Positions 4,565-44,400 of a DNA stretch of 46,304 bases are shown here, piece after piece (position 1 is the first letter of the stretch; every line of letters starts with the position of its first letter). Under the pieces are notes generated by a model. The model searched no databases and was not told where the DNA came from. It saw nothing but the letters and a program-made list of their open reading frames with translations. The stretch is from an uncultured Dehalococcoidales bacterium (lineage in GTDB: Bacteria; Chloroflexota; Dehalococcoidia; GIF9; UBA5629). Where the stretch lies: the NCBI GenBank assembly GCA_964616785.1, contig CAZTRR010000003.1, positions 1-46,304 of the forward strand. Direction: 5' to 3'. The position numbers and the translations under genes were made by a program.

Positions 4565-7426
4565 ATGTCGTCAGATAGCATAATCGTAAGGGGAGCCCGA
4601 GAGCACAACCTCAAGAACATAGACGTAGCTATCCCCCGAGACAAGCTCGTGGTTATCACCGGCGTCTCGGGCTCGGGCAAGAGCTCCCTGGCCTTCGATA
4701 CCATATACGCGGAAGGGCAACGCCGCTACGTCGAGTCGCTGTCTGCCTACGCTCGCCAGTTCCTGGGACGTATGGAGAAGCCCGACGTCGATTACGTAGA
4801 AGGGCTGAGTCCCGCTATCTCGATTGACCAGAAAGGGCCGTCTCATAATCCGCGCTCCACCGTGGGCACCGTAACCGAGATATACGACTACTTGCGCCTT
4901 CTTTTTGCCCGTGTTGGTCATCCTCATTGTCCCAAGTGTGGGCGCGAAATCTCCCGGCAGACAGTACAGCAAATCGTGGATGCCGTGCAAGAAATACCCA
5001 CGGCCAGCCGAGTCATGATACTGGCACCGCTAATCAGGGACCGGAAAGGTGAACACCAGGCGATATTTGATGACCTGCGGAAAGCGGGATTCGTCCGCGT
5101 TCGAGTTGATGGCTATATTCACGACTTGTCTGAAGAGTTCGAGCTGGACAAGAACAAGAAACACACCATCGAAGTAGTGGTTGACCGGCTCAGGATAGGA
5201 GAAGCCGAAAACAGCCGTATTGCCGACTCTGTGGAGACCGCACTGAAGCTTGGAGCCGGAGTTGTCCTTGTCTCCATCAACGACAGAGAAGAGCTGCTGT
5301 TCTCTGAGCATTTCGCCTGCGTTCACTGCGGCATAAGCCTTGGTGAAATTGCACCGCGGACTTTCAGCTTCAACAGTCCCCACGGGGCTTGCCCAGAGTG
5401 CAGCGGGCTGGGCGTCAAACTGGAGGTGGACCCCGACCTGGTGATACCGAACAGGAAGCTGAGCGTGTCTGAGGGTGCCATCCACCCGTGGGTCTGGGCT
5501 TCATGGCGCACCAGCCAACTCGAAGATATGGCTCGACGCCACGGTTTCTCCCTTCGTACGCCAATTGACCAACTCAGCCAGGAGCATCTGAACCTTATCC
5601 TCCACGGTGAGAATGCAGAGGTGGCAAGATACCGCAATCGTTATGGACGAGTCAGAGAGTACTCCAGCGGCTATGAAGGGGTAGCCACCTCTCTGGAGCG
5701 CCTCTATCGAGAAACCGAGTCCAACAACAGTCGTGCTTTCATTGAAAGATATATGGTCTCCCACCCCTGCCCAGTTTGCCGCGGAAAGCGGCTCAAACCT
5801 GAATCTCTGGCTGTTACCATCGCCGGCAAGAACATAACCGAGGTGACCGTGCTATGCGCTTTGGAAGCGTTGCGATGGATCCGGTTCCTAAGCGATCAAC
5901 AGAACCACAAACCCCTCTTAACATCTAACGAACTGAGGATAGCCGACCAGATTCTGAAGGAGATAGACACCCGTCTGGGCTTTCTCAGAGACATTGGACT
6001 GGGCTATCTCACCCTGGAACGCCCCTCCGCAACCTTGAGCGGTGGAGAAGCGCAGAGAATCCGGCTGGCTACTCAAATAGGGAGCGGCCTGATGGGAGTG
6101 CTTTATGTGTGCGACGAGCCTACGATTGGCTTGCACCCCGCCGACATCTTCCGTCTCATCGGAACGATGAAGAGGTTGCGCGACCTGGGTAATACCATTC
6201 TCATCGTAGAGCATGATGAGGTCATGATGCGGGCTGCCGATTACATTATCGATATGGGGCCCGGGGCCGGTGAACATGGTGGCCAGATTGTGACCACAGG
6301 ACCATTGGAAAGCATCATAAACTGCCCCGAGTCAATAACCGGACAATACCTCAGCAGAAGCAAGCGAATTCCCTTACCAACAGGTCGGCGCTCTGGTTCG
6401 GGCAGAGAGCTGGTAATCATGGGCGCCCGCGAAAACAACCTGAAGAACATTGATGTGACCGTGCCGCTGGGTAGGTTCGTCTGTATAAGCGGTGTATCAG
6501 GCAGCGGCAAGAGCACGCTTATCAACGAGGTGCTGTACAAGAAACTAGCTCAGACATTCTACCGGGCAAAAGATAGACCCGGAGAATGCGACGGCATCAT
6601 TGGCGTCGAGCATATTGACAAGGTCGTCAATATCGACCAATCGCCCATCGGCCGTACTCCGCGCAGCAACCCGGCTACGTACACTGGAACTTTCACCCCC
6701 ATACGCGAACTCTTTGCCACCGTGCCCGAAGCTCGCATGCGCGGGTACCGCCAGGGCCGGTTTTCTTTCAATGTCCGTGGGGGACGGTGTGAGGCCTGCC
6801 AGGGCGAGGGCTATATCCAGATAGAGATGCACTTCCTGCCCGACGTTACCGTGCCGTGTGAAGTGTGTAAGGGGAAGCGTTACAACCGCGAGGCCCTCGA
6901 CATACTCTTCAAGGGCAAGAACGTCGCCGATATTCTGGATATGACCGTGGATGAAGCCCTACCCTTCTTTGAGCACTTCCCCAAGGTCAAGAACAAGTTG
7001 CAGACACTCCGAGATGTTGGCCTGGGCTACATACGGCTGGGACAGCCAGCACCAACACTTTCTGGGGGCGAAGCCCAGCGGGTCAAACTTGCCACTGAAC
7101 TATCTCGGCGCTCCACTGGCAAGACGCTCTACATCCTCGATGAGCCTACGACCGGTCTCGCCTTTGCCGACATAGCGTATCTACTACAGGTACTGCACCG
7201 CCTGGTAGACGCCGGAAATACCGTGGTCATTATCGAGCACCACCTGGACGTAGTCAAGAACGCTGACCATATAATCGACCTTGGCCCCGGTGCCGGCGAT
7301 GAAGGAGGCTACGTTATGGCCACCGGCACACCCGAGGAAATAGCCCGGGTAGATGCCTCGCTCACTGGCCAATACCTCCAGAATGTGCTCCAGACGCAAC
7401 AAAGACAGTATTCTTTGGCCACCTAG
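4565..7426 (+). CDS. uvrA: Excinuclease ABC subunit A (UvrA)
   Basis: 953 aa. N-terminus is [63 protein letters not shown]. Second Walker A is [10 protein letters not shown]. There are two LSGGEAQR signatures and CxxC zinc modules. Confidence 0.97.
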
Positions 7427-18435: not shown

Positions 18436-19269
18436 TCAGTGCCTTTTTCTCAGTAGCTCTTCTATCCCTTGAAGCAGCTTCTCGCTTTCATCGGCGCTAA
18501 GGCTGAGATTGCTTTCGAGCCTGTTCATATAGCTATCGATCTCCGGGAACCGCCCTCTATACTCGGCTATCTCTCGATTCTGTTCTGCCACCTCCTTATC
18601 GAGGTCTTGGAAATCGATGCCCAAGCGAAGATGCGCGTCAAGGAACCCTGCGGCTTTCCTCCAGGCTAAAGGATCGTTACCACCCGCCAGATAAAAAGGT
18701 ACCGGCACCCACAGGTTTGCCCCGGGGATATTCCTCCTCTTGGCGACCCACAGGAGAAAAGAACTCAGGGTTGGTCTTTGACCCGGCGGGGTCTCAAAAT
18801 CCCAGTCGGTGGTAACGCCATACTGCCTCAGTACCTCTTTCAATTCTGGCGAACTGGCTACAGCCAGTAACAGCCGTGGTGTAGTATGCGCGCTCAGAGA
18901 GACCATGCCGCCGATTGTGTATAGCACTTGCACCCTGCAAAAACGTTCAGCCACGTCTATGACCGAGTTGAGGAACTGGTACCACTCGGATCTCGGGGGG
19001 TTGCTTCTAAGAACCATCAGATTTCTCTCCCGTGACCAATAGAACTTGCTCTCTGGAAACTGCGCTACGTCCGCTTCTACGGAGACTCCATCCAGTGGAA
19101 AGAAGCCTACAGGGTCAATTTCAGCCATCTCCTGGCTTCCCAGTTTCCTGTTTAGATAGGCGACGACCTTCGGTCCGAGCTTGCCGGCATCTTCACTCCA
19201 AGCCACCACCAGAGATGAGCTGCGCAGCTCCCCTCTTGCCGGTGTTTTGATAAGCTCTGCTTCACTCAA
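18436..19269 (-). CDS. PAC2-family (proteasome assembly chaperone-like) protein, divergent paralogue B
   Basis: TTG start, with GGTGGAGAG SD, 2 nt after the stop of paralogue A. It aligns by eye with paralogue A (FP.SKFY..., ...Y(T)(S/I)GG..., helical C-terminus), but the PGIGNVG motif reads SEDAGKLG. Confidence 0.7.
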   Translation of the reverse strand: MSEAELIKTPARGELRSSSLVVAWSEDAGKLGPKVVAYLNRKLGSQEMAEIDPVGFFPLDGVSVEADVAQFPESKFYWSRERNLMVLRSNPPRSEWYQFLNSVIDVAERFCRVQVLYTIGGMVSLSAHTTPRLLLAVASSPELKEVLRQYGVTTDWDFETPPGQRPTLSSFLLWVAKRRNIPGANLWVPVPFYLAGGNDPLAWRKAAGFLDAHLRLGIDFQDLDKEVAEQNREIAEYRGRFPEIDSYMNRLESNLSLSADESEKLLQGIEELLRKRH

Positions 19270-19271
19270 TT

Positions 19272-20183
19272 CTACTCTCCACCTGGTTCTTTCTTAAAAA
19301 GCTTATCAATGTCCTGCACGATCCTCCTCTTGTCCTCCTCAGTTATAGGCTCTTGCCCGACAGGTTCAGCACCGGCCACACGTTTCAACCTATCGAGCTG
19401 TTCCCGTATCTCCGAAGGCAGCTTCTCATACAGGCCCTCAAGCTCTCTCTCGCTGCGTTCAACGAGTTCGCTGATTTCTTCCATCTTGACTTCAATCCCC
19501 AAAGCAGTACCCAACACCTCCAGAACCGACCTTGACCCCTTTGGGTAGGGAAGGGGGAAACCCTGAAGATAAATCGGTATCTCACCCATTACACAGATAG
19601 CCTCCAGACCTCTCTTCCTGGCAACTCCCAGCAAGAGCCCGTTCAAACCAGTGATATTGCCTTGTCCACCCAAGCCCTCGATGTCTGACATCAGCACTGT
19701 ATTCTCATAGCTTCTCACTTCATCGATTAAGTCCTCGCTATTAGGTGCCACCCAGACTCTCGACCTCGCCGTATGATGGATAGGAGCGACGGCTGCTCCC
19801 GATGTGTAGGCTCTCCGACATCCAAACTTCACTGCCACATCTAGCACAAGATTTGCCATTCGGTAGGCCTTTGTACCTTCGGCGTAGGCCGTCCCTCCCG
19901 CAGTTGGCTGTTCCTGGGCGACAAACAACATCAAGTCCCTTTTTTCAGTTCTGCTGAAATAGAACTTATTACTGGGGAACTCCAGACCTTCCAACTCCCC
20001 GTTTCTGATGACAACCTTCCTGGGATAGAAGAAGTCCCATGGCTCAATTTCGCCGAACTCCTCTGCATCCAACATTCGCCTGAGAGCGTCGACCGCCATT
20101 ATTCCGACGTTACCGATTCCCGGCCAGCAGGCTATCAAGACCGGATCATTGAGCTCGGGTTCCTTCCAGAGTCTAATTCCCAT
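19272..20183 (-). CDS. PAC2-family (PbaA/PbaB-like) protein, paralogue A
   Basis: I set the start at ATG 20181-20183, overlapping the sixA stop (TAATG). The PVLIACWPGIGNVGIMAVDAL motif is typical of archaeal and bacterial PAC2 proteins. It has a coiled-coil C-terminus. Confidence 0.8.
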   Translation of the reverse strand: MGIRLWKEPELNDPVLIACWPGIGNVGIMAVDALRRMLDAEEFGEIEPWDFFYPRKVVIRNGELEGLEFPSNKFYFSRTEKRDLMLFVAQEQPTAGGTAYAEGTKAYRMANLVLDVAVKFGCRRAYTSGAAVAPIHHTARSRVWVAPNSEDLIDEVRSYENTVLMSDIEGLGGQGNITGLNGLLLGVARKRGLEAICVMGEIPIYLQGFPLPYPKGSRSVLEVLGTALGIEVKMEEISELVERSERELEGLYEKLPSEIREQLDRLKRVAGAEPVGQEPITEEDKRRIVQDIDKLFKKEPGGE

Positions 20184-20680
20184 TAGTCTCTCTTTCTTCC
20201 GGCTCTGGCCTGACCCGCCTGCCGAGCAAGAAAAGGAGCAAGGGCCCAGTCTACTGCCCAACTCTCACCGCTCTTGGCAAGGCAGACCACACCTCCCATC
20301 CTGAAGTTCACGATCTCTTTCTCCGGCTCGCCCAGGATAAGCAGAGACGCCAACCTCTTCAAATGTGGCAGGTGGCCTACAATCATGAGTGATTCTTCAG
20401 CTTGCAAGATCAACTCCTTCACCCTGTGGAGGTCATCCAAAGGTCCAAGACCGTCCTGTTCAGCAATACCCTGAAACGGCGTAAGTTGTTGAGCAAAGAG
20501 CTCCGCTGTCTGCTTCGCCCTCAGCTTACCGGAGTGAAGAATCCGAACAACCTCTATTCCCAGCTCGGCCACACAACAAGCCACTGTCTCGACTTCCTCT
20601 TTGGCCCTATCAGTCAAAGGCCGCGACGGGTCTTCCATCTCGGATTTGGATTCACCGTGCTGCACCAAATACAGTTCCAT
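20183..20680 (-). CDS. sixA: SixA-like histidine phosphatase-superfamily protein
   Basis: MELYLVQHGESKSE...RPLTDRAKEE...ILHSGKLRAKQTAE. It has about the length of SixA (165 aa). SD GGGAGGGG lies upstream. The RHG motif reads QHG. Confidence 0.75.
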   Translation of the reverse strand: MELYLVQHGESKSEMEDPSRPLTDRAKEEVETVACCVAELGIEVVRILHSGKLRAKQTAELFAQQLTPFQGIAEQDGLGPLDDLHRVKELILQAEESLMIVGHLPHLKRLASLLILGEPEKEIVNFRMGGVVCLAKSGESWAVDWALAPFLARQAGQARAGRKRD

Positions 20681-24862: not shown

Positions 24863-25894
24863 CTATATCTGGTGGATGTCCCTCACCATTCTTATGAAGT
24901 TGTCGATGTTGACCGGCTTCGACTTTGCCTCTCGTCTGCCTAAAGGGTCAGTAATCTCGCGGTTTCCCAGAAGAACGTCAAGCGTGGCGCTTATAGACAA
25001 GGGCAATGCCTCGGGATGGTAACCGCCCTCCAGAGTGAAGACCAGACGTCCTTCGCATAGCATATCGGTAAGAGTTTTTATGATTTCCACTAAGCGGGCG
25101 AAGCCAGAGACACTCACCTGCATCAGCGCGATGCTGTCAGCCCAGTGAGCATCATAGCCGGCGGAGACGAGAATAAGTTGCGGCTCGAAACGTCTGGCGA
25201 TTGGCGCCAGGACATCTTCGAAGACTGCTTGGTATTCCTCGTCGCCCCAGCCAGCAATGAGAGGTACGTTAACGGTGAAGCCCTCGCCATCCCGAGCTCC
25301 AGTCTCGTCAACACTTCCAGTCCCCGGGTAAAACGGGTACTCGTGGGTGGAGAAGTAGACGACATGCGGGTCGGCATAAAAGGTGTCTTGCGTGCCGTTC
25401 CCGTGGTGAACATCAAAATCGACAATCAGAACCCGCTCGATATCGAAGTTGGCTAGAGCATATTTGGCAGCTATGGCTATGTTATTGAATAGGCAAAAGC
25501 CCATCGCCTGCCAGCAGGTGGCGTGGTGTCCCGGAGGTCTAACCAAGGCGAAGGCACTATCGACCCTTTTGGCCATCACAGCTTCAACTGCAGTCAAAGC
25601 GCCACCGGCAGCGTGGATAGCTGCGTCGTAGGATCTCTGTGACATTACAGTATCACCGTCGAGCCAGCCACCGCCTCTTTCGGCCTGGGCTTGAATGCGG
25701 GAAATGTATTCCTGAGCATGTACCGCTGACAGCTCATCTACTGTAGCTGGACGCGGCGAGAGCAAAACAAGCTTGTCTTTGAGCTGATTTTCCTCGAGGA
25801 GGGACATTGTGGCCCCTAGCCTCTGGGCGTTCTCAACGTGTGTGCCGGTGTCATGCTCCAAATAGACTGGGTCGTAGACCAAACCGACTCTCAT
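24863..25894 (-). CDS. Histone deacetylase-family (AcuC/AphA-like) deacetylase
   Basis: Motifs RPPGHHA, DFDVHHGNGTQ and the GGY motif (EGGYH). Confidence 0.9.
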   Translation of the reverse strand: MRVGLVYDPVYLEHDTGTHVENAQRLGATMSLLEENQLKDKLVLLSPRPATVDELSAVHAQEYISRIQAQAERGGGWLDGDTVMSQRSYDAAIHAAGGALTAVEAVMAKRVDSAFALVRPPGHHATCWQAMGFCLFNNIAIAAKYALANFDIERVLIVDFDVHHGNGTQDTFYADPHVVYFSTHEYPFYPGTGSVDETGARDGEGFTVNVPLIAGWGDEEYQAVFEDVLAPIARRFEPQLILVSAGYDAHWADSIALMQVSVSGFARLVEIIKTLTDMLCEGRLVFTLEGGYHPEALPLSISATLDVLLGNREITDPLGRREAKSKPVNIDNFIRMVRDIHQI

Positions 25895-26054
25895 GGTAGC
25901 CTAGTGTTCTTCGGGAGTTCTCAGGTCTTGAGGTGCTTATACGGCCTTATGATAGCAGAACGGGATAGTGCGAGCAATTGCTGGAGTTAGTCGGGTCTGG
26001 TGATGATTGTTCGGGGTTAAGCCTCGTGATATACTGGGGAACCGGGGGATCGCG

Positions 26055-27257
26055 ATGTCGCTGGACTTGACTCAATTGGTTGCTCAGGTTGAGGATTTGG
26101 CAGCCAGTCTGAAAACACGGGAGGGAGAGAGGCGAGCTAGACTTGTTTTCGCCCTGGAGACTCTCCAGTCTCCGGCCGCTGAACTGAATCACCTGGCACG
26201 GAAGATTGAAACGAGCAAGGCTACCTGGCTGGTGGCGGGGTTAAGGGAAAGGATTGATCTCCGTGAGCGAGCATCACGCTGCCCCGAGAATTGTATTGTC
26301 CTTGCGAGTGATGGTTCTCATATTGATGTTGACCGCCACCACTCTGCTCGTTGCTTCTTGATTAATATCGGCATTGCTCAACTTCAGTATGGTCGAAGCC
26401 CTGACGCCTGTCTTTCCACTTTGCCTCTCCTTTACTTCCAGGACGGCGAGGTCGCCATTTCATCTCCAGATGGTCGAGAGGTTCCAATAGAGGGCCAGCT
26501 TCTGGGAATAAAGCGCAGCGTTGAAGAATGTCGCTTATTGACTGAGCGGGCCAGGGAGGTACAAGCAGCCCTGCCCATCGTGGGGTTGCTCGATGGCTCG
26601 CTTATTCTATGGGGGCTGGCTGGACAAACTTATCCTGATTTCGTCCTTCATGAACTTCTGACGGATGGCCTCTTGAAACACCTTGATGTGCTAACAGAGC
26701 TTCACCGAAATAGGCAACTGGCTGTGGCAAGCTACGTCAGTTTTCCTCGGAGCACTGACGTGGTCAATGCATTGCGTCTCGCCATTTGCCCTCACCAGCC
26801 TGTAGATTGTGACCATTGTTGCGACGGTAAATCTGAGGGTAAGGAATGTGATGCTGTTGGCGGTCTGCTTGATCGTGACCTCTTCGGTCAGCTGTTGTCT
26901 TCCGGGGAACGGTCAGCTATATTCAGCAGTCGCTCTTCAGTGGTAAAGAAGCATTATGGAATTCACGAGGTCAATTTCTTCTATGTCAAGCTTGACGAGG
27001 AGGTAGCGCGGGTGGAGATTCCTCTTTGGGTGGCTGAGGAGAAGGAGTTGGTTGGACTGGTCCATTCGGTGATTTTGGACCAATGTCAGCGGGGACTGGG
27101 TTATCCCGTTGCCCTGAGTGAGGCTCACGAGAAAGCGGTGGTGACTGGTGGTGACCGTGAGCAGTTCTGGGGACTGGTGGAGCAGACGCTGGCCGAAAGC
27201 GGAATGTGGCTGGAGAGCTCAGCTAAACAGCAAAGCAAGAGAACGAGATGGATTTAG
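26055..27257 (+). CDS. NurA-domain nuclease
   Basis: I set the start at ATG 26055, with GGGGGA SD 6 nt upstream and an extended -10-like TGATATACT at 26027-26035. Motifs are LASDGSHIDVD, GLLDGSLILWG and the C-terminal GYPVALSEAHEKAVV. Confidence 0.75.
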   Translation: MSLDLTQLVAQVEDLAASLKTREGERRARLVFALETLQSPAAELNHLARKIETSKATWLVAGLRERIDLRERASRCPENCIVLASDGSHIDVDRHHSARCFLINIGIAQLQYGRSPDACLSTLPLLYFQDGEVAISSPDGREVPIEGQLLGIKRSVEECRLLTERAREVQAALPIVGLLDGSLILWGLAGQTYPDFVLHELLTDGLLKHLDVLTELHRNRQLAVASYVSFPRSTDVVNALRLAICPHQPVDCDHCCDGKSEGKECDAVGGLLDRDLFGQLLSSGERSAIFSSRSSVVKKHYGIHEVNFFYVKLDEEVARVEIPLWVAEEKELVGLVHSVILDQCQRGLGYPVALSEAHEKAVVTGGDREQFWGLVEQTLAESGMWLESSAKQQSKRTRWI

Positions 27258-27838
27258 GGGCTAGAGTAGCTGAAGTTGTCGAAGCCAGTAGCGCTGAGTT
27301 TGTGGCTCAATGCTATAAGCTTAACCAAGCACCGCCATTGGGCAGTCTGGTGAAAACCAGGGATGAACTCTGGGAAATCTATGGCGTCGTCTGCAATATT
27401 GAAACGCATAGCCTTGACCCAGGGCGACGCGTAGTGGCCAGGGGCGAGGAGGTGGAGACGGAGGATCAGCTTTTTCGAGCTAATCCGCAGCTAACTAAAC
27501 TTCTAAGTACTGATTTTAAAGCTCTGGTGGTTGGCCATCGCCACGGTGATGACTTGCATCATTATCTACCACCCGGACCAGCACCCATTCACGGCTTCGT
27601 CTACACGTGCCAGCTCGAGGAGGTCACAGCGTTTACTCAGTCCCTGGATTTCCTTGGCTTGTTAGTTGATGCCCGGTTACCCTTCTCTGTAGACGAGGTT
27701 ATTGCCGCTTGCCTTCGCTCTGCCAGTAAGTCGTATCCCGATTCTAAGGCTTTTCTTGTCAAAGCTGGTAGGGAGCTGGCCGGGCTGTTGGGCGGCGATT
27801 CTCAAAGACTCAACTCGGTTCTCAAGAGGCTTAGATGA
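27248..27838 (+). CDS. Hypothetical protein; its N-terminus resembles a HerA HAS-barrel
   Basis: 196 aa. It overlaps the NurA gene by 10 nt and the HerA gene by ATGA. ARVAEVVEASSAEFVAQCYKLNQAPPLGSLVKTRDELWEIYGVVCNIETHSLDP parallels RLGSVASGSLTRGVDVKLDASVSVEDMAVGRYVAIEGEKRRFFGMITDVSLEAVDP of the next gene. Confidence 0.65.
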   Translation: MDLGARVAEVVEASSAEFVAQCYKLNQAPPLGSLVKTRDELWEIYGVVCNIETHSLDPGRRVVARGEEVETEDQLFRANPQLTKLLSTDFKALVVGHRHGDDLHHYLPPGPAPIHGFVYTCQLEEVTAFTQSLDFLGLLVDARLPFSVDEVIAACLRSASKSYPDSKAFLVKAGRELAGLLGGDSQRLNSVLKRLR

Positions 27839-29472
27839 TGGCTGAGCAGAATTCCGATGAACGAACCCGCTTGGGTTCAGTCGCTTCCGGCTCTCTGACC
27901 AGAGGCGTGGACGTGAAGCTCGATGCTTCGGTTTCGGTAGAGGATATGGCGGTGGGGCGCTACGTGGCTATTGAGGGAGAGAAACGCCGTTTCTTTGGGA
28001 TGATTACGGATGTTAGTCTGGAAGCTGTCGACCCCAGGGTCATAATAACGCCGCCTGATATCTCCGACCCTTTCATTGCCCAGGTGGTTGCTGGTACGAC
28101 TACCTATGGAAAACTTCGTGTTCTACCGATGTTGACCATAGGGGGCGATGCGGTAAGCATACTTGAAGGGCCTCAGCCAGTGAAGACAGTGCCCACGCAT
28201 TTCTCTGAAGTAACACTGGCTTCCCAACAGGATGTGGAGTTGGTTTTCGGTGCTGAGGATGACAGGCGGTTCTATGTCGGCACGCCTCTGGATATGGAGA
28301 CCAAGGTGTGCCTCAATGTGTCCGAGTTTGTCAAGCGGTCCAATGGGGTTTTTGGAAAGAGTGGCACAGGGAAGACCTTTCTGACTCGCTTGCTCCTCGT
28401 TGGTATGCTGCAAAAGCAGGCGGCGGTGAGCCTGGTTTTTGACATGCATAGTGAATACGGTTGGGAGGGGAGGAGTGAGAAAGGCTACAAGGTAAAGGGA
28501 TTAAAGCAGCTTTTCCCGTCCAAAGTGGCGGTTTTCGCCTTGGATGAGGAAAGCTCGCGCTGGAGGAAAGTGAGCACTGATTTCGTAGTCAAGATAGGCT
28601 ACGATGAGATTGAGCCCGAGGATATCGAGTTGCTCCGGCAGACACTGAACTTGACTGAAGCTTCTACTCAGGCAGTCTATCAACTAGCACGGGAGTTCGG
28701 CGACAGGAAATGGCTGGAGACTATACTCAATTTGGACGATGACGACAGCAAGCTGCTGATTGCCAGGCTCAATATTCACGACAGCACCTACCATAATCTA
28801 CGCCGTGGACTGGATAACTTGCGGAGGTTTCCCTTCTTAGTATCTCATGCTCCTGATAACTCGGTGCGCCGTATTCTGGAGTATTTGGAGCGGGGAATAA
28901 ACGTTGTTCTCGAGTTCGGCAGATTCGACGATTTCGTAGCCTATATGCTGGTGGCTAACCTGCTTAGCCGCCGGATTTACGCTCAATATCGGGAAAAAGC
29001 GGAGAAGGCGATGGGCGGCGACGTGGCACCATCTCGGCCCCTGGTTGTCACCATTGAAGAGGCCCATCGCTTTCTTAATCCCGAGTTGTCGGGCCGAACA
29101 ATCTTCGGTAGGATCGCTCGGGAGATGAGGAAATACGATGTTACTTTGCTGGTGATTGACCAACGTCCCAGTGGTATCGACGACGAGGTCATGTCGCAAC
29201 TAGGAACCAAGGTTACGTGCCTTCTTGACGATGAGCGTGATATCGATAGTGTGCTTACCGGTGTAGCGGGCAAGAGCGAGTTGAAGTCGGTGCTGTCAAA
29301 GCTCGAAACGAAGCAGCAGGCGCTTATCTTCGGTCATGCCGTACCGATGCCAGTGGTGATCAAGACTCGGGAATACGGCTCGGCTGAATCATATAAGGAA
29401 CTTGGTTTTCTCGAGGCTGCCGAGTTCAAAAGGAAGACGGAGAAAGAAATAGAGGGTCTGTGGGCACCGTAA
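27835..29472 (+). CDS. HerA/FtsK-type (DUF87) hexameric ATPase
   Basis: HAS-barrel-like N-terminus. Walker A is VFGKSGTGKTF. Walker B-like segment is LVVTIEEAHRFL. TLLVIDQRPSGIDDEVMSQLGTKV is typical of HerA. Confidence 0.8.
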   Translation: MMAEQNSDERTRLGSVASGSLTRGVDVKLDASVSVEDMAVGRYVAIEGEKRRFFGMITDVSLEAVDPRVIITPPDISDPFIAQVVAGTTTYGKLRVLPMLTIGGDAVSILEGPQPVKTVPTHFSEVTLASQQDVELVFGAEDDRRFYVGTPLDMETKVCLNVSEFVKRSNGVFGKSGTGKTFLTRLLLVGMLQKQAAVSLVFDMHSEYGWEGRSEKGYKVKGLKQLFPSKVAVFALDEESSRWRKVSTDFVVKIGYDEIEPEDIELLRQTLNLTEASTQAVYQLAREFGDRKWLETILNLDDDDSKLLIARLNIHDSTYHNLRRGLDNLRRFPFLVSHAPDNSVRRILEYLERGINVVLEFGRFDDFVAYMLVANLLSRRIYAQYREKAEKAMGGDVAPSRPLVVTIEEAHRFLNPELSGRTIFGRIAREMRKYDVTLLVIDQRPSGIDDEVMSQLGTKVTCLLDDERDIDSVLTGVAGKSELKSVLSKLETKQQALIFGHAVPMPVVIKTREYGSAESYKELGFLEAAEFKRKTEKEIEGLWAP

Positions 29473-29583: not shown

Positions 29584-31176
29584 TCAGGGTGATGAGTAGA
29601 CCTCCTCCTCTATATAGACTTCACTCAGTGTTGGGATACCCTGGGCATCGAGCTTGTAATTCCTGACGTAAGGCCGGATCAAAACATAGCTGGTGCCAAA
29701 CCACAATGGCAAACAGGCAGCTTCATCTATCATGCTCTGTTCGACTTGTTGGTACAGCGCCAATCTGGTGGCATCGTCTGGTTCCACGGCCGCCTGGTCA
29801 AGCAGAGCGTCCAAGTCTGGATTGCTATAGCTGCCGCTGTTATACTCAGCCCCGGTATGAAACAGGATATCCAGGAAATCCTGCGGGTCGGGATAGTCAG
29901 CAATCCAGCCGGCCATAAACATCTCATCGGCTTCTTCTTTCAGGTAATAGGAGAATACCTCGGGCTCCAGTTGCCTGACAGTTACCTCTACACCGAGGTT
30001 GTACTGCCAGTCTTGGATAATGGCTCCGAGATATTCTGGTATGTTGCCTCCCCGGCCAGAGGTAGTCAGTGTGATCGGAGGCAGATTGGCAACGCCACCA
30101 TACTTCGAACTGGCGATGAGGCTTTTCGCCTTGGCTACGTCGAAGTCCAGTCCGTTTAGGCTTTCATTATAGCCAGGCATGTTTGGAGGCAGAATGCCAT
30201 CGGCCTCGCTCACCATTCCTTTCAGGATTATTCTGATAATTCGCTCCTTGTTCACTGCATGGCAGAAAGCCTGGCGGATGTTCACATCGTCAAAAGGTGC
30301 CTTTTGAGTGTTGAAGCCTATGTAGAAGAGGCTCGACTCAGGAAATATGGCCAGCTCTGCATGGAAAGGACCTTTCTCATCTCTCACCCGGTCAACGTGG
30401 TATTCGTAGACTGGAGCCACGTCGATTTCGTCCATTTCATACATGGCCAAAGGCATACCAGCCAGAAGATGAAAGACCACGCGATTAACATTAGGTGGCT
30501 CCCGGTAGTAGGTCTCGTTTGCCTCCAGAACCAGGGATTGGCCTTCTTTCCATTCTTCTAGCTTAAACGGGCCAGTTCCGTTTGGTCTGTGCCACCATTC
30601 CCTGCCTGATTCCACGTCGGCTCTATCAACAACAAAGGCAGTAGGATAAGTGAGCTTGGCCAGGAAATAAGCCTTAGGAGCGTCAATGGTGACCTTCAGG
30701 GTATAATCATCGATAACCTCAACGCCGCTGATTTCTGTCGTCTTCCCTTCGAGCACGTCATCTACGCCAACAATATCGCCCAAATACGTGACCGCTGTTT
30801 GCGAACCGGTTTCAGGGTTGCAAGCTCTTTCCCATGAGTATTTGAAATCCTGAGCAGTGACCTCCTTGCCATCGTGAAATCTTACCCCTTTCCGCAAATG
30901 GAAAGTATAGGTCTTGCCATCATTGCTTCTTTGCCAGCTTTCAGCGATATCAGGTGCTGGCTTGGATTCTTCGTCAAGACGGACGAGGCCGCTAAAGACC
31001 TGCATAATATAGGTGTGGGAGGTCATCTCACCGGAGATCGCCGGGTCAAGGGTTATTGGACCAGTGTCCCACAGGTTGAGCACGTCCTGTTCCACCTGGC
31101 AGCCGCTGGCCACAGGCAGTATCCCCAGAGTGCAAAGCAAAATGCCCAGCAATGCTACTTTGCGAACCTTTTTCAT
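29584..31176 (-). CDS. ABC transporter substrate-binding lipoprotein, peptide/nickel (family 5) type
   Basis: 530 aa. Lipobox LPVASGC. The overall layout is family-5 SBP (...YTFHLRKGVRFHDG...). No permease or ATPase genes are adjacent. Confidence 0.88.
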   Translation of the reverse strand: MKKVRKVALLGILLCTLGILPVASGCQVEQDVLNLWDTGPITLDPAISGEMTSHTYIMQVFSGLVRLDEESKPAPDIAESWQRSNDGKTYTFHLRKGVRFHDGKEVTAQDFKYSWERACNPETGSQTAVTYLGDIVGVDDVLEGKTTEISGVEVIDDYTLKVTIDAPKAYFLAKLTYPTAFVVDRADVESGREWWHRPNGTGPFKLEEWKEGQSLVLEANETYYREPPNVNRVVFHLLAGMPLAMYEMDEIDVAPVYEYHVDRVRDEKGPFHAELAIFPESSLFYIGFNTQKAPFDDVNIRQAFCHAVNKERIIRIILKGMVSEADGILPPNMPGYNESLNGLDFDVAKAKSLIASSKYGGVANLPPITLTTSGRGGNIPEYLGAIIQDWQYNLGVEVTVRQLEPEVFSYYLKEEADEMFMAGWIADYPDPQDFLDILFHTGAEYNSGSYSNPDLDALLDQAAVEPDDATRLALYQQVEQSMIDEAACLPLWFGTSYVLIRPYVRNYKLDAQGIPTLSEVYIEEEVYSSP

Positions 31177-31607
31177 CTTATTACCTTCCCTGCCAGTGCG
31201 CTGGCATGGTACTCCCCTTTTTCAAGTGTGACTTCGCCATTGACGAGGACATAGTGGATTCCCTCAGAGAACTGGAAAGGGGTATTGAAAGACGCACCGT
31301 TGTTGACGGTCTTTAGGTCAAATATGGTGATGTCAGCAAAGGCGCCTTTTCTCACAATGCTCCGGTCTTTAAGGCACATCTGTTTCTCGTACTGCAAGCC
31401 GTCCGCATCAATCACTGTTGACGCTTGGGCATTCGGAAAGAGTCCCACATCTTCAATGCGTTCACCTCGGACCATCACATCTCCCCTAAAAGCGGGCTTT
31501 CCTGTGCCACCCATGATCATGCCGTTTCTTATCAACACGTCAGTGCTCACCCTGGCAACTCCTGCAAGAAATGATCTGGTCAAAGCTCGCCTCGAGCGGG
31601 ACCCCAC
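31173..31607 (-). CDS. D-aminoacylase/amidohydrolase-like remnant: N- and C-terminal beta-sandwich segments fused, catalytic barrel missing
   Basis: DVLIRNGMIMGGTGKPAFRGDVMVRGERIEDVG...VIDADGL joins directly to ...LKDRSIVRKGAFADITIFD...GIHYVLVNGEV. The likely start is GTG 31550 (GCAGGAG SD 8 nt upstream). ATGA overlap with the binding-protein gene. Confidence 0.6.
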   Translation of the reverse strand: MGSRSRRALTRSFLAGVARVSTDVLIRNGMIMGGTGKPAFRGDVMVRGERIEDVGLFPNAQASTVIDADGLQYEKQMCLKDRSIVRKGAFADITIFDLKTVNNGASFNTPFQFSEGIHYVLVNGEVTLEKGEYHASALAGKVIR

Positions 31608-31780: not shown

Positions 31781-32470
31781 TCAGAATAGGTTCTTGGCTT
31801 TCATACTTAAATAGTCTTTATCGCAGACAATAATATGGTCGAGGACTTCGATGCCCATGATTTCACCAACTTCGACAAGTCGCTTGGTTATTCTGATGTC
31901 ATCTTCGGAAGGTGCAGGGTCACCAGAAGGGTGATTGTGCGCGAGGATAACTGAAGCGGCACTGGAGGAGATAGCTTCCTTGAATACCTCCCGTGGATGG
32001 ACGATGCTGGTATCGAGACTGCCGACGGAGATTGGGTGAGTCTCTATCAGGTGACCTCGGGTGTCGAGGGAAAGTACCAGGAAATGCTCCTTCTTCTTGC
32101 CCTTTAGCTGGCTCTTGACTGACCTGATGGCATCCTCTGGAGACCTGACCGTAGGTTTCTGTTCCTCGTCACAGGAATTCTCTAGCCGTTTGCCCAGCTC
32201 AAAGGCAGCCTTAATCTGGGCCGCTTTGGCCGGGCCCACGCCTTTTATTTCGGTTAGCTCTTGCATGGAGGCAGCGGCAATGTTCTTGAGATTGCCGAAC
32301 GTGCTTAACAGCGCGTGAGCGATGGCCATTACTGACTCGTCCTTGCTTCCTCGCCCCAGGATTACGGCCAGGATTTCTGGAACAGAGAGGGCTTCAACCC
32401 CAAGCTTTGCAAGTCTCTCCCGAGGCCGTTCTGAAAGAGGTAGGTCGTGAATGGTAAAAGACCTCTTCAA
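31781..32470 (-). CDS. radC: RadC-family JAB-domain protein
   Basis: N-terminus is IHDLPLSERPRERLAKLG. The JAMM region is ILAHNHPSGDPAPSEDD. TTG start overlaps the upstream stop (TTGA). Confidence 0.9.
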   Translation of the reverse strand: MKRSFTIHDLPLSERPRERLAKLGVEALSVPEILAVILGRGSKDESVMAIAHALLSTFGNLKNIAAASMQELTEIKGVGPAKAAQIKAAFELGKRLENSCDEEQKPTVRSPEDAIRSVKSQLKGKKKEHFLVLSLDTRGHLIETHPISVGSLDTSIVHPREVFKEAISSSAASVILAHNHPSGDPAPSEDDIRITKRLVEVGEIMGIEVLDHIIVCDKDYLSMKAKNLF

Positions 32471-34819: not shown

Positions 34820-35524
34820 CTAAATGAGCAATCTCTGCTGGGCGGTGTCATGCGTGGTCGTCAGTTTACCGCCGGCAGCGAGATGAGCCAATCGGGACGG
34901 CTCAGGAAGCCGATAACCTCGGCAACATTGCATCGTCCAGCCTATGGCTGTAGGCAGATCAATTCTATGACCGATGGAGACATAAATAGGACTCACCTGA
35001 ATCTTGGTTCTCAGAGCGACCCCAATAACCTCGCCATTGTGGGTAAGCTTAGCATAAGCCCCAGCTTCAATGTCTGGCGATTCGTGTCTGCCGCACAGGC
35101 GGGACTTGGCACAGCCTATAGTAGGTGTATCAAGAAGAAGGCCCAGATGTGAGGCGAGCCCGAAGCGCCTAGGGTGCGCAATTCCTTGGCCATCTACAAG
35201 AACAAGGTTGGGATTCGTGGACAGTTTCTGGCAAGCAGCTATCACTAATGGGGCTTCCCTGAAGGACAGCAGCCCAGGTATATAAGGAAAGCCGAGTTTG
35301 TCTTCAGCTATCGCGACTTCGACAATTTCGAGCCCGGGGTAACTAAGGACAACTGCTGCTGCACGGGCCATCCCTGTGGAATCTGGTGCTGATATGTCGA
35401 CACCGGCAATAAGATGCGGGATAGCGACTTCGTTTTTCCGGGATACCTGGCTTGCCAGCCTCCGTTGGATGTCTTGAGCTTGGGCGACGCTTATTTGCCA
35501 ACTGTGTAATTGTCGCACTTCCAT
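34820..35524 (-). CDS. nfi: Endonuclease V
   Basis: Motifs IAGVDIS, YIPGLLSFREAP and VDGQGIAHPRRFGLASHLGLLLDTPTIGCAKS. I set the start at ATG 35522-35524 (MEVRQLHSW...) because a promoter sits immediately upstream. The ORF-track start at 35563 lies inside that promoter. Confidence 0.88.
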   Translation of the reverse strand: MEVRQLHSWQISVAQAQDIQRRLASQVSRKNEVAIPHLIAGVDISAPDSTGMARAAAVVLSYPGLEIVEVAIAEDKLGFPYIPGLLSFREAPLVIAACQKLSTNPNLVLVDGQGIAHPRRFGLASHLGLLLDTPTIGCAKSRLCGRHESPDIEAGAYAKLTHNGEVIGVALRTKIQVSPIYVSIGHRIDLPTAIGWTMQCCRGYRLPEPSRLAHLAAGGKLTTTHDTAQQRLLI

Positions 35525-35531
35525 ATCTCTG

Positions 35532-35560
35532 ATTATAATTGGTATGGTCCCTGGTGGCAA
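35532..35560 (-). promoter_or_regulatory. Near-consensus promoter positioned for a leaderless nfi transcript
   Basis: On the minus strand: TTGCCA (35560-35555), 17-nt spacer, TATAAT (35537-35532), then 7 nt to ATG 35524. Confidence 0.5.
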
Positions 35561-35681
35561 CATTCATGGCTTTTCCGAGTAGTGTCAAACGCTATGCCTT
35601 TCTCGTCGGCCTTTCGATATATTCAACATACCCGTGGTTCAGAAACCGTATAGTATGTCCTGGACACCGCACACTTCGCTA

Positions 35682-43854: not shown

Positions 43855-44400
43855 TCAGGACTTGTGCTTGCCGAGATCGTCCAAGTCAAGGGTGTTAATG
43901 AAGTCATAGAAAGCCGAGAGCTTCTTCAATTCCTGCTCATCAACTTTGCCTTTTGGCGATGTAGTATCCGTGTCTGCAGGGATAGGTTTCCCCGTTTCTC
44001 GGTCGAGTATGATGCCAGCCTTATCCAAGACCGATTCCTCAACATAGATAGGCGCTGTTACTCTTACTGCCAAGGCAATCGCGTCGCTGGGACGGGAGTC
44101 GATTTCCAGTTGCTTGCCATTGGTGCTGAGGACTATCTTGGCATAGAAGGTATCGTTGTGGAGATCATTGACCACGATAAGGTTGACCGCAGCTCCCAGG
44201 GTGTCAATTACAGAGTTCAACAAGTCATGAGTCAAGGGGCGAGCCATGTCCATATTCTGCAATTTCACTGAGATGGCGTCCGCCTCTGCCGGGCCAATCC
44301 ATATAGGTAGATAGCGGTCTGATTCCTTCTCTTTCAGAATCACCACATGCTGATAATTGACCATGCTCACGCGAATGCTATCAATCGTCATCTCTATCAT
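43855..44400 (-). CDS. Bifunctional nuclease family (BFN/DUF151) protein
   Basis: YQHVVILKEKESDRYLPIWIGPAEADAISVKL....RPLTHDLL....DTFYAKIVL...IDSRPSDAIALAVR. Confidence 0.85.
   Translation of the reverse strand: MIEMTIDSIRVSMVNYQHVVILKEKESDRYLPIWIGPAEADAISVKLQNMDMARPLTHDLLNSVIDTLGAAVNLIVVNDLHNDTFYAKIVLSTNGKQLEIDSRPSDAIALAVRVTAPIYVEESVLDKAGIILDRETGKPIPADTDTTSPKGKVDEQELKKLSAFYDFINTLDLDDLGKHKS

Follow-up and report, generated by a model that had tools for sequence, protein, structure and literature searches.

The HAS-barrel (Pfam family PF09378) is the N-terminal barrel common to HerA and the subunits of the F1/V1-ATPases. In the characterised systems in which HerA works together with the nuclease NurA, the HerA hexamer translocates double-stranded DNA (dsDNA) and the ring formed by its HAS-barrels is the surface onto which the NurA dimer docks (PMC9960219). 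In Thermus the two genes form a locus of their own, the nurA stop codon overlapping the start codon of hepA, and in Oceanithermus the sbcDC genes follow hepA (PMC5448004). The archaeal operon has four genes, herA, mre11, rad50 and nurA. HerA-family ATPases also adjoin effector genes in the SIR2-HerA (Nezha) and DUF4297-HerA systems, and the HAS-barrel ring of these HerA proteins is again the docking platform. The present analysis concerns a three-gene locus on a 46,304-nt stretch of DNA from an uncultured Dehalococcoidales bacterium of the phylum Chloroflexota (contig CAZTRR010000003.1 of assembly GCA_964616785.1, positions 1 to 46,304 of the forward strand), hereafter called the window. A conserved gene, the product of which was named Mid in this analysis, lies between nurA and herA, and Mid is predicted to be a stand-alone copy of the HerA domain to which NurA docks in the characterised systems.

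Open reading frame (ORF) calls and reading of the sequence place the three genes on the plus strand (Table 1), with nurA starting at an ATG. The nurA and mid genes overlap by 10 nt and mid and herA by the four nucleotides ATGA, both of which can be seen in the sequence. A first-pass annotation of the window, made from the sequence alone, had described three coupled plus-strand genes with these overlaps between minus-strand neighbours, and the sequence and the Pfam assignments of the flanking genes confirm all of it. Its statement that the described bacterial loci contain two genes agrees with the arrangement in Thermus (PMC5448004). The closest described relatives are the NurA-HerA pair of Deinococcus radiodurans (7WRW, 7WRX and 7F6D; PMC9960219) and nurA-hepA of Thermus (PMC5448004). 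As in these, the nuclease gene is upstream and coupled towards a HAS-barrel HerA, the genes are on the chromosome, and in most cases there is no Mre11-Rad50 next to them. Unlike these, the window has a conserved gene for a 196-residue protein with only a HAS-barrel between nurA and herA, and its NurA has 400 residues compared to 293 in Thermus and contains a conserved four-Cys cluster. A conserved gene separates nurA from herA here and in nearly all relatives, which sets the module apart from the two-gene bacterial type.

The archaeal HerA-NurA complexes (S. solfataricus, 4D2I; T. kodakarensis, 9X1L and 9X1M) are composed of the same two enzyme families. They are among the best Protein Data Bank (PDB) sequence matches of the window HerA, and the N-terminal parts of their HerA chains are the best structural matches of Mid. 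The window module does not belong to the archaeal four-gene type, however, because Mre11 and Rad50 are absent; it also has a different gene order and an extra stand-alone HAS-barrel subunit. It differs from the SIR2-HerA and DUF4297-HerA systems in that its effector is NurA and in that it is found in a core-genome context and not in a defence island. The locus had been taken not to match any described system. This assessment stands, as no three-gene form and no stand-alone HAS-barrel partner of NurA-HerA was found in the literature searched, the founding HAS-barrel paper (Iyer et al. 2004) being outside its coverage. A 'HAS barrel domain protein' and a 'NurA domain-containing protein' are both listed among the genes specific to the cyanobacterium UCYN-A1 in Table 3 of a comparative-genomics study (PMC12234771), a hint that the pairing of a stand-alone HAS-barrel with NurA may also occur in Cyanobacteria. 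NurA and HerA of the window are ordinary members of their families, and the new part is a HAS-barrel third gene in a known repair machine.

The middle gene had been considered unassignable, but Pfam, an AlphaFold2 (AF2) model and Foldseek all identify its product as a HAS-barrel protein. The window Mid scores 21.6 bits against PF09378 (E 2e-4) with a cut-off of 25.2 bits. Among 46 diverse members of the Mid family, 21 match the HAS-barrel at E <= 0.01, the best of them with an E of 7.7e-8, and no Pfam family other than the HAS-barrel matched any of the 46. Many database homologues of Mid bear a precomputed PF09378 match, and a few members already carry the NCBI label 'HAS-barrel domain-containing protein'. 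The AF2 model, calculated with 49 homologues, has a pLDDT of 88.3 and a pTM of 0.83. It shows a β-barrel with a short helical insert, followed by a helical bundle. The conserved motif PGRRxxARG is located on a loop that is modelled at lower confidence. A Foldseek comparison of the model with the PDB gave 60 matches at E <= 0.001, and each of the 50 listed is a chain of HerA or of a HerA-like protein (lowest E 3e-7, probability 1.00, TMq ~0.45, 128-163 aligned columns). They include HerA of T. kodakarensis, S. solfataricus and D. radiodurans and of the DUF4297 and SIR2 systems, and, among the matches listed, they are limited to the N-terminal part of the HerA chains. The helical bundle, of about 75 residues, has no Pfam match and lies outside the structural alignments with PDB entries. 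At the sequence level, the Mid profile gave only a chance-level match to PDB sequences (E 0.069), and a comparison of the Mid and NurA families with hhalign found nothing. On the evidence of the model and Pfam, Mid is a stand-alone HAS-barrel protein and a predicted structural copy of the N-terminal domain of HerA without the motor. Its N-terminal 120 residues would adopt the PF09378 fold, whereas no P-loop ATPase domain is attached to them and a helical bundle takes its place.

The genome scan covered one genome per species of the Genome Taxonomy Database (GTDB), and the loci examined were those from the best 80 of the 176 genomes that encode a Mid relative, together with loci fetched earlier. 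The best 80 are all Chloroflexota, mostly Dehalococcoidia. A Dehalococcoides mccartyi metagenome-assembled genome (MAG; locus L032) carries the trio. Searches for distant members extend the Mid family to Chloroflexus, Chloroflexaceae, Oscillochloridaceae, Anaerolineae, Gemmatimonadota and Latescibacterota, and the order NurA-Mid-HerA is kept in Anaerolineae and in non-Chloroflexota contigs of the Gemmatimonadota/Latescibacterota type. In 76 of 88 loci herA begins no more than 60 nt after mid, and the median spacing is an overlap of 7 nt. Where the gap is large, which is rare, it contains small unrelated genes that are acetyltransferase- and methyltransferase-like by eye only. Of the 80 genome loci, 64 have an upstream nurA on the same strand, and 15 of the 16 loci in which it was not seen offered less than 2.7 kb of upstream sequence. 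The distance between nurA and mid is more variable, being at most 100 nt in 36 of 75 loci and more than 400 nt in 30. Because this junction often holds unrelated genes, strict co-translation of the trio is not required. The inserted genes were considered as extra subunits and rejected, since the glutaminyl cyclase, M20 peptidase and IS200-like genes found there are unrelated passengers. Insertions appear to recur at this junction, where genes of about 180 aa resembling IS200/Y1 transposases were seen in two Dehalococcoidia loci (L005:1576-2139 and L039:5471-6016). What seems to be a fusion of NurA and Mid in P0209 is probably a frameshift artefact and was disregarded.

In a Chloroflexus sp., in Oscillochloridaceae and on one metagenomic contig, NurA and Mid are adjacent and HerA is not (L092:4786-6618, L098:5790-7600 and JGI 3300056388). 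Mid is thus tied to both partners, because it adjoins NurA where HerA is elsewhere and adjoins HerA in most loci. Such dual linkage is the behaviour expected of a third subunit. In the Chloroflexus sp. and Oscillochloridaceae loci, luciferase-like and aminotransferase genes come after NurA-Mid, and on the JGI contig HerA is found about 6.5 kb downstream of NurA-Mid, beyond an ABC transporter. In the non-Chloroflexota trios further conserved genes lie directly 5' of nurA (L086:4453-5701, L088:4995-5744 and L090:5131-5685). The product of one has about 190 aa and resembles a winged helix in its C-terminal region (L086 and L090 share 64% identity); that of the other has 212-249 aa and matches SH3 weakly (L086 and L088 share 38% identity). 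In L086 the genes are themselves preceded by a gene for a HATPase_c protein. These genes may be lineage-specific regulators or added components.

It might be argued that a small protein resembling the N-terminal domain of HerA, encoded next to herA, is a degenerate copy of the 5' end of herA or a small ORF peculiar to the lineage, so that the system is an ordinary two-component NurA-HerA pair with Mid as a dispensable passenger. A partial tandem duplication would indeed leave such a resemblance, HerA retains a HAS-barrel of its own, and the characterised bacterial systems function with two proteins (PMC9960219; PMC5448004). The conservation of Mid makes this explanation highly improbable. Mid has 313 homologues among 5.8 billion protein clusters. 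The top 120 of these homologues are full-length proteins with 56-99% identity, the named ones being Dehalococcoidia. A profile search of 1.84 billion representatives of 50%-identity clusters extended the family to 990 families at E <= 1e-3 and 659 at E <= 1e-10. The length stays near 200 aa over these ~990 representatives (mostly ~190-220 aa in the 150 listed), and the position of the gene is kept across phyla, next to NurA even where HerA has moved away. Ten residues (E9, P29, G32, R60, G66, P80, G96, P108, H115 and G174) are near-invariant among members that are only ~35-55% identical. The ratio of nonsynonymous to synonymous substitution rates (dN/dS), compared with relatives, is 0.10-0.14 for Mid, similar to the 0.10-0.12 of NurA, and ~0.05 for HerA, all three values being approximate because dS is near saturation. 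NurA, Mid and HerA co-diverge (r 0.86-0.92), which shows co-inheritance only, because any genes sharing genomes would correlate. The first-pass annotation had called the middle protein obligate-looking and had pointed out that poor conservation, or absence from orthologous loci, would reduce the locus to an ordinary pair; what was found is clearly the opposite. Comparison of the homologous sequences indicates that Mid is a genuine component under strong purifying selection.

The nuclease is identified by its match to PF09376 with 93.4 bits (cut-off 21), which extends over residues 82-363 and positions 3-254 of the 254 in the model. Its translation contains ASDGSHIDVD, LLDGSL and GYPVALSEAHEKA. 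Like the HerA motifs GKSGTGKT, VVTIEEAH and IDQRPSG, these had been quoted as grounds for the two family assignments, and both the motifs and the assignments hold. In 64 NurA homologues, conservation reaches 95% or more for the Asp of ASDGS, the Asp of LLDGS and the E-x-H-E of SEAHEK, and by analogy with published NurA structures these acidic and His residues would be catalytic. The four Cys residues are arranged as C245-x6-C252-x3-C256-x8-C265. C245, C256 and C265 are present in all 64 aligned homologues and C252 in 58, and the cluster is probably a Zn- or Fe-S-binding knuckle inserted in the nuclease. To our knowledge, no characterised NurA protein has such a cluster. The window NurA had no match to PDB NurA sequences at E <= 0.01, and its AF2 model, calculated from the single sequence, has a pLDDT of 35 and is unusable for establishing an RNase-H-like fold or the docking of a dimer on the HAS-barrel ring of HerA.

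The central domain of HerA matches PF01935 with 105 bits (cut-off 23.2). Its own HAS-barrel gives a partial match to PF09378 over residues 29-62, with a score of 25.2 bits that equals the cut-off exactly. The Walker A and B motifs GKSGTGKT and VVTIEEAH are nearly invariant in 72 HerA homologues, and IDQRPSG is also present in the window protein. The Walker A motif is preceded by ~146 residues, as it is in S. solfataricus HerA. The HAS region is acidic, with a pI of 4.6. Among PDB sequences, SIR2-associated HerA, S. solfataricus HerA and T. kodakarensis HerA are matched, and phmmer found no match to D. radiodurans HerA at E <= 1e-3. Against the NCBIfam equivalogs the protein scores 81, 79 and 72 bits, with cut-offs of 800, 800 and 970 bits; the first of these is the archaeal-repair HerA and the second the anti-phage HerA. 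Only the generic HerA, mad8 and DndH models of PADLOC match. Judged by these profile scores, the window HerA is a distinct subfamily, and the equivalog scores do not separate repair from defence.

The trio had been credited with an extended -10 element of its own. The element (TGATATACT) is indeed present, within a block of about 40 nt that has a -35-like TTGTTC, a 17-nt spacer and the TG-extended -10 sequence TATACT, although a generic sigma-70 promoter scan did not call it. The block is kept in five of six relatives with 73-81% identity in the Mid protein. Since it is conserved while the neighbouring intergenic DNA has diverged, an operon promoter is supported, and its conservation can reasonably be taken as comparative evidence for the predicted promoter.

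The surroundings of the trio are those of a housekeeping region, with genes for UvrA, the CCA-adding enzyme, SecDF, RadC, a release factor, endonuclease V (EndoV) and ATP synthase. A relative with 70% Mid identity retains the flanking gene order, with SecDF and the deacetylase upstream and the solute-binding protein, RadC, a peptidase and the release factor downstream; three additional genes separate the deacetylase from nurA in this relative. Residence in a variable island, which had been suggested as something to look for, is not what was found: the housekeeping flanks are syntenic in that relative, and copies on plasmids, phages and IMG/VR contigs are lacking (see below). The region is rich in DNA-maintenance genes, as UvrA, endonuclease V, RadC and a bifunctional-nuclease-domain protein are all encoded in it. 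None of these genes is adjacent to the trio, or co-oriented with it, in an operon. Elsewhere in the window there are two tandem PAC2-family genes, related to proteasome-assembly-chaperone-like proteins, and an ORF without a Pfam match that abuts the start of the solute-binding protein gene and could be the relic of a gene or encode a small protein that has escaped annotation. No match was obtained when the window was scanned with Rfam and for tRNA genes.

Table 1. Positions of the trio, its parts and other features in the window
Feature	Coordinates	Strand	Description
UvrA gene	4565-7426	+	Full-length, 953 aa; 19 kb upstream of the trio
PAC2-family genes	18436-20261	-	Two tandem genes, 277 and 329 aa
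Hist_deacetyl gene	24863-25894	-	Pfam E 3e-97; flanks the trio on the nurA side
Conserved upstream block	26003-26040	+	~40 nt; probable operon promoter
-35-like element	26007-26012	+	TTGTTC
Extended -10 element	26027-26035	+	TGATATACT
nurA	26055-27257	+	400-aa NurA-family nuclease; N-terminal helical extension; four-Cys cluster C245/C252/C256/C265
Cys cluster of NurA	26787-26849	+	C245 to C265
nurA/mid overlap	27248-27257	+	10 nt
mid	27248-27838	+	196-aa predicted stand-alone HAS-barrel protein; barrel ~6-120, helical bundle 123-195
mid/herA overlap	27835-27838	+	ATGA
herA	27835-29472	+	545-aa HerA/FtsK-superfamily hexameric-type ATPase; own N-terminal HAS-barrel; Walker A GKSGTGKT, Walker B VVTIEEAH
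SBP_bac_5 gene	29584-31176	-	Family-5 solute-binding protein (SBP); Pfam E 8e-87; flanks the trio on the herA side
ORF abutting the SBP gene	31173-31607	-	144 aa
RadC gene	31781-32470		
Endonuclease V gene	34820-35563		
Bifunctional-nuclease-domain gene	43855-44400		

Mre11 and Rad50 homologues were not found in the window by tblastn. The trio had been described as lacking Mre11-Rad50, which is correct for the window and does not hold for the family as a whole. Two distinct Chloroflexota MAGs have same-strand five-gene clusters in the order NurA-Mid-HerA-SbcD-SbcC (L095:4849-12406 and L097:5816-13664), with an Mre11-like SbcD of 404-408 aa and a Rad50-like SbcC of 849-859 aa. The position of SbcD-SbcC after herA is comparable to that of sbcDC after hepA in Oceanithermus, and the clusters are a bacterial counterpart of the archaeal herA-mre11-rad50-nurA operon with an extra HAS-barrel gene. 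A role in repair is suggested because the two clusters mirror both of these arrangements. It is favoured further by the housekeeping synteny, the phylum-wide presence of the trio, the lack of plasmid, phage and viral copies and the lack of a PADLOC match for the partners of HerA. The locus is probably a chromosomal housekeeping machine of three proteins, of the NurA-HerA type, that would process DNA ends for double-strand break (DSB) resection and recombinational repair. End resection, with the corresponding repair phenotype, is on the whole the likely role.

The module could instead serve another DNA transaction, in which Mid would confer specificity; DNA export or uptake and the processing of replication intermediates or stalled forks are examples. 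Motors of the HerA/FtsK family do act in DNA transfer, as TdtA and HepA of Thermus and the archaeal Ced system illustrate (PMC5448004 and other papers), and a role in transjugation has been proposed for the HepA and NurA-like proteins of Thermus. The phenotypes of bacterial nurA and herA mutants are, moreover, mild or atypical for pure DSB repair; those of D. radiodurans, as cited in PMC5448004, are defective in proliferation and reduced in recombination and retain radio-resistance. Among the ~98 loci inspected, however, no conjugation, competence or membrane genes are linked to the module, and SbcD-SbcC are the only recurrent DNA-metabolism neighbours. Such a role is considered unlikely.

Several observations weigh against the reading of the locus as a three-protein repair machine. 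The linkage to SbcCD was seen in only two of the ~98 loci, in addition to the loose case of the D. mccartyi MAG (L032), where an SbcC homologue lies 1.1 kb downstream of the trio on the opposite strand. Unrelated genes separate nurA from mid in 30 of 75 loci. The alignment of Mid with the HerA N-terminus by hhalign is collinear and non-significant (E 0.098), so that the proposed paralogy of Mid and HerA rests on the fold and the Pfam matches. HerA has its own HAS-barrel, and the need for a second one is not obvious. The scores of HerA against the archaeal-repair and anti-phage models of NCBIfam are about equal. Finally, the genes directly after herA in two of the non-Chloroflexota loci (L086/L087:9354-10891) encode an N6/N4 DNA methyltransferase and a BglII-type restriction enzyme, and a DDE transposase is near in L086. 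This was the sole defence-like neighbourhood seen.

The last two observations bear on the question of whether the trio might be an anti-phage or anti-plasmid system of the HerA-plus-effector kind, with NurA as the nuclease effector and Mid as a sensor or regulatory subunit. HerA ATPases drive the effectors of SIR2-HerA and DUF4297-HerA, and the window HerA matches the PADLOC and NCBIfam models for such proteins; the scatter of the trio across three phyla is also compatible with some horizontal transfer. The match to the anti-phage equivalog is, however, far below its cut-off (79 compared to 800 bits), and PADLOC, which the first-pass annotation had named as a check, returned no match for NurA or Mid and generic models only for HerA. 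Mid homologues were absent from 72,556 plasmids, 50,697 phages and the IMG/VR contigs, PHROGs had nothing for NurA or Mid, and Foldseek found no match in a viral structure set at E <= 0.001. The neighbours are housekeeping genes in the window and in close relatives, the trio is present in all major Chloroflexota classes, including the D. mccartyi MAG, and SbcD-SbcC are linked to it in two lineages. A defence function is therefore very unlikely. The choice between end resection and defence had been left open; this remains true as far as the undiscriminating HerA scores are concerned, whereas context, distribution and PADLOC favour repair.

In a repair machine of this kind, HerA would most likely be a hexameric dsDNA translocase, and NurA, as its nuclease, would degrade the strands fed to it by HerA, as in the archaeal and Deinococcus complexes. 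Mid, which appears to duplicate the HAS-barrel of HerA, the NurA docking domain of the characterised systems, and has no ATPase, may oligomerise through its barrel and occupy the interface between the HAS-barrel of HerA and NurA. It could be an adaptor that couples or licenses the nuclease and the motor, or a gate that holds them back until a DNA end is engaged. The flexible Arg-rich loop with the PGRRxxARG motif could line a pore, contact DNA or bind an acidic surface of a partner. We infer the formation of a complex, its stoichiometry and the function of Mid as adaptor or gate from the predicted fold and from the properties of the characterised systems. It is tentatively suggested that the HAS-barrels of Mid form a ring of their own, which either is sandwiched between hexameric HerA and dimeric NurA or closes the pore of HerA as long as no DNA end is present. 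The trio would then represent a distinct three-subunit class of bacterial end-resection machines, with the docking platform split from the motor as a protein that can be regulated separately. Chloroflexota would rely mainly on this class for resection, and Gemmatimonadota and Latescibacterota would have it as well.

Among the end-resection systems of prokaryotes, NurA-HerA is the least well understood, and how the nuclease and the motor are coupled and restrained in bacteria is still an open question. A phylum-wide third subunit that copies the NurA-docking domain of HerA would provide a testable handle on this coupling. The finding is of moderate relevance to research on DNA repair and ring ATPases. 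It concerns a little-studied phylum that includes the environmentally important Dehalococcoidia, and hundreds of proteins that are now labelled 'hypothetical' or 'HAS-barrel domain-containing' could be annotated as a NurA-HerA accessory subunit.

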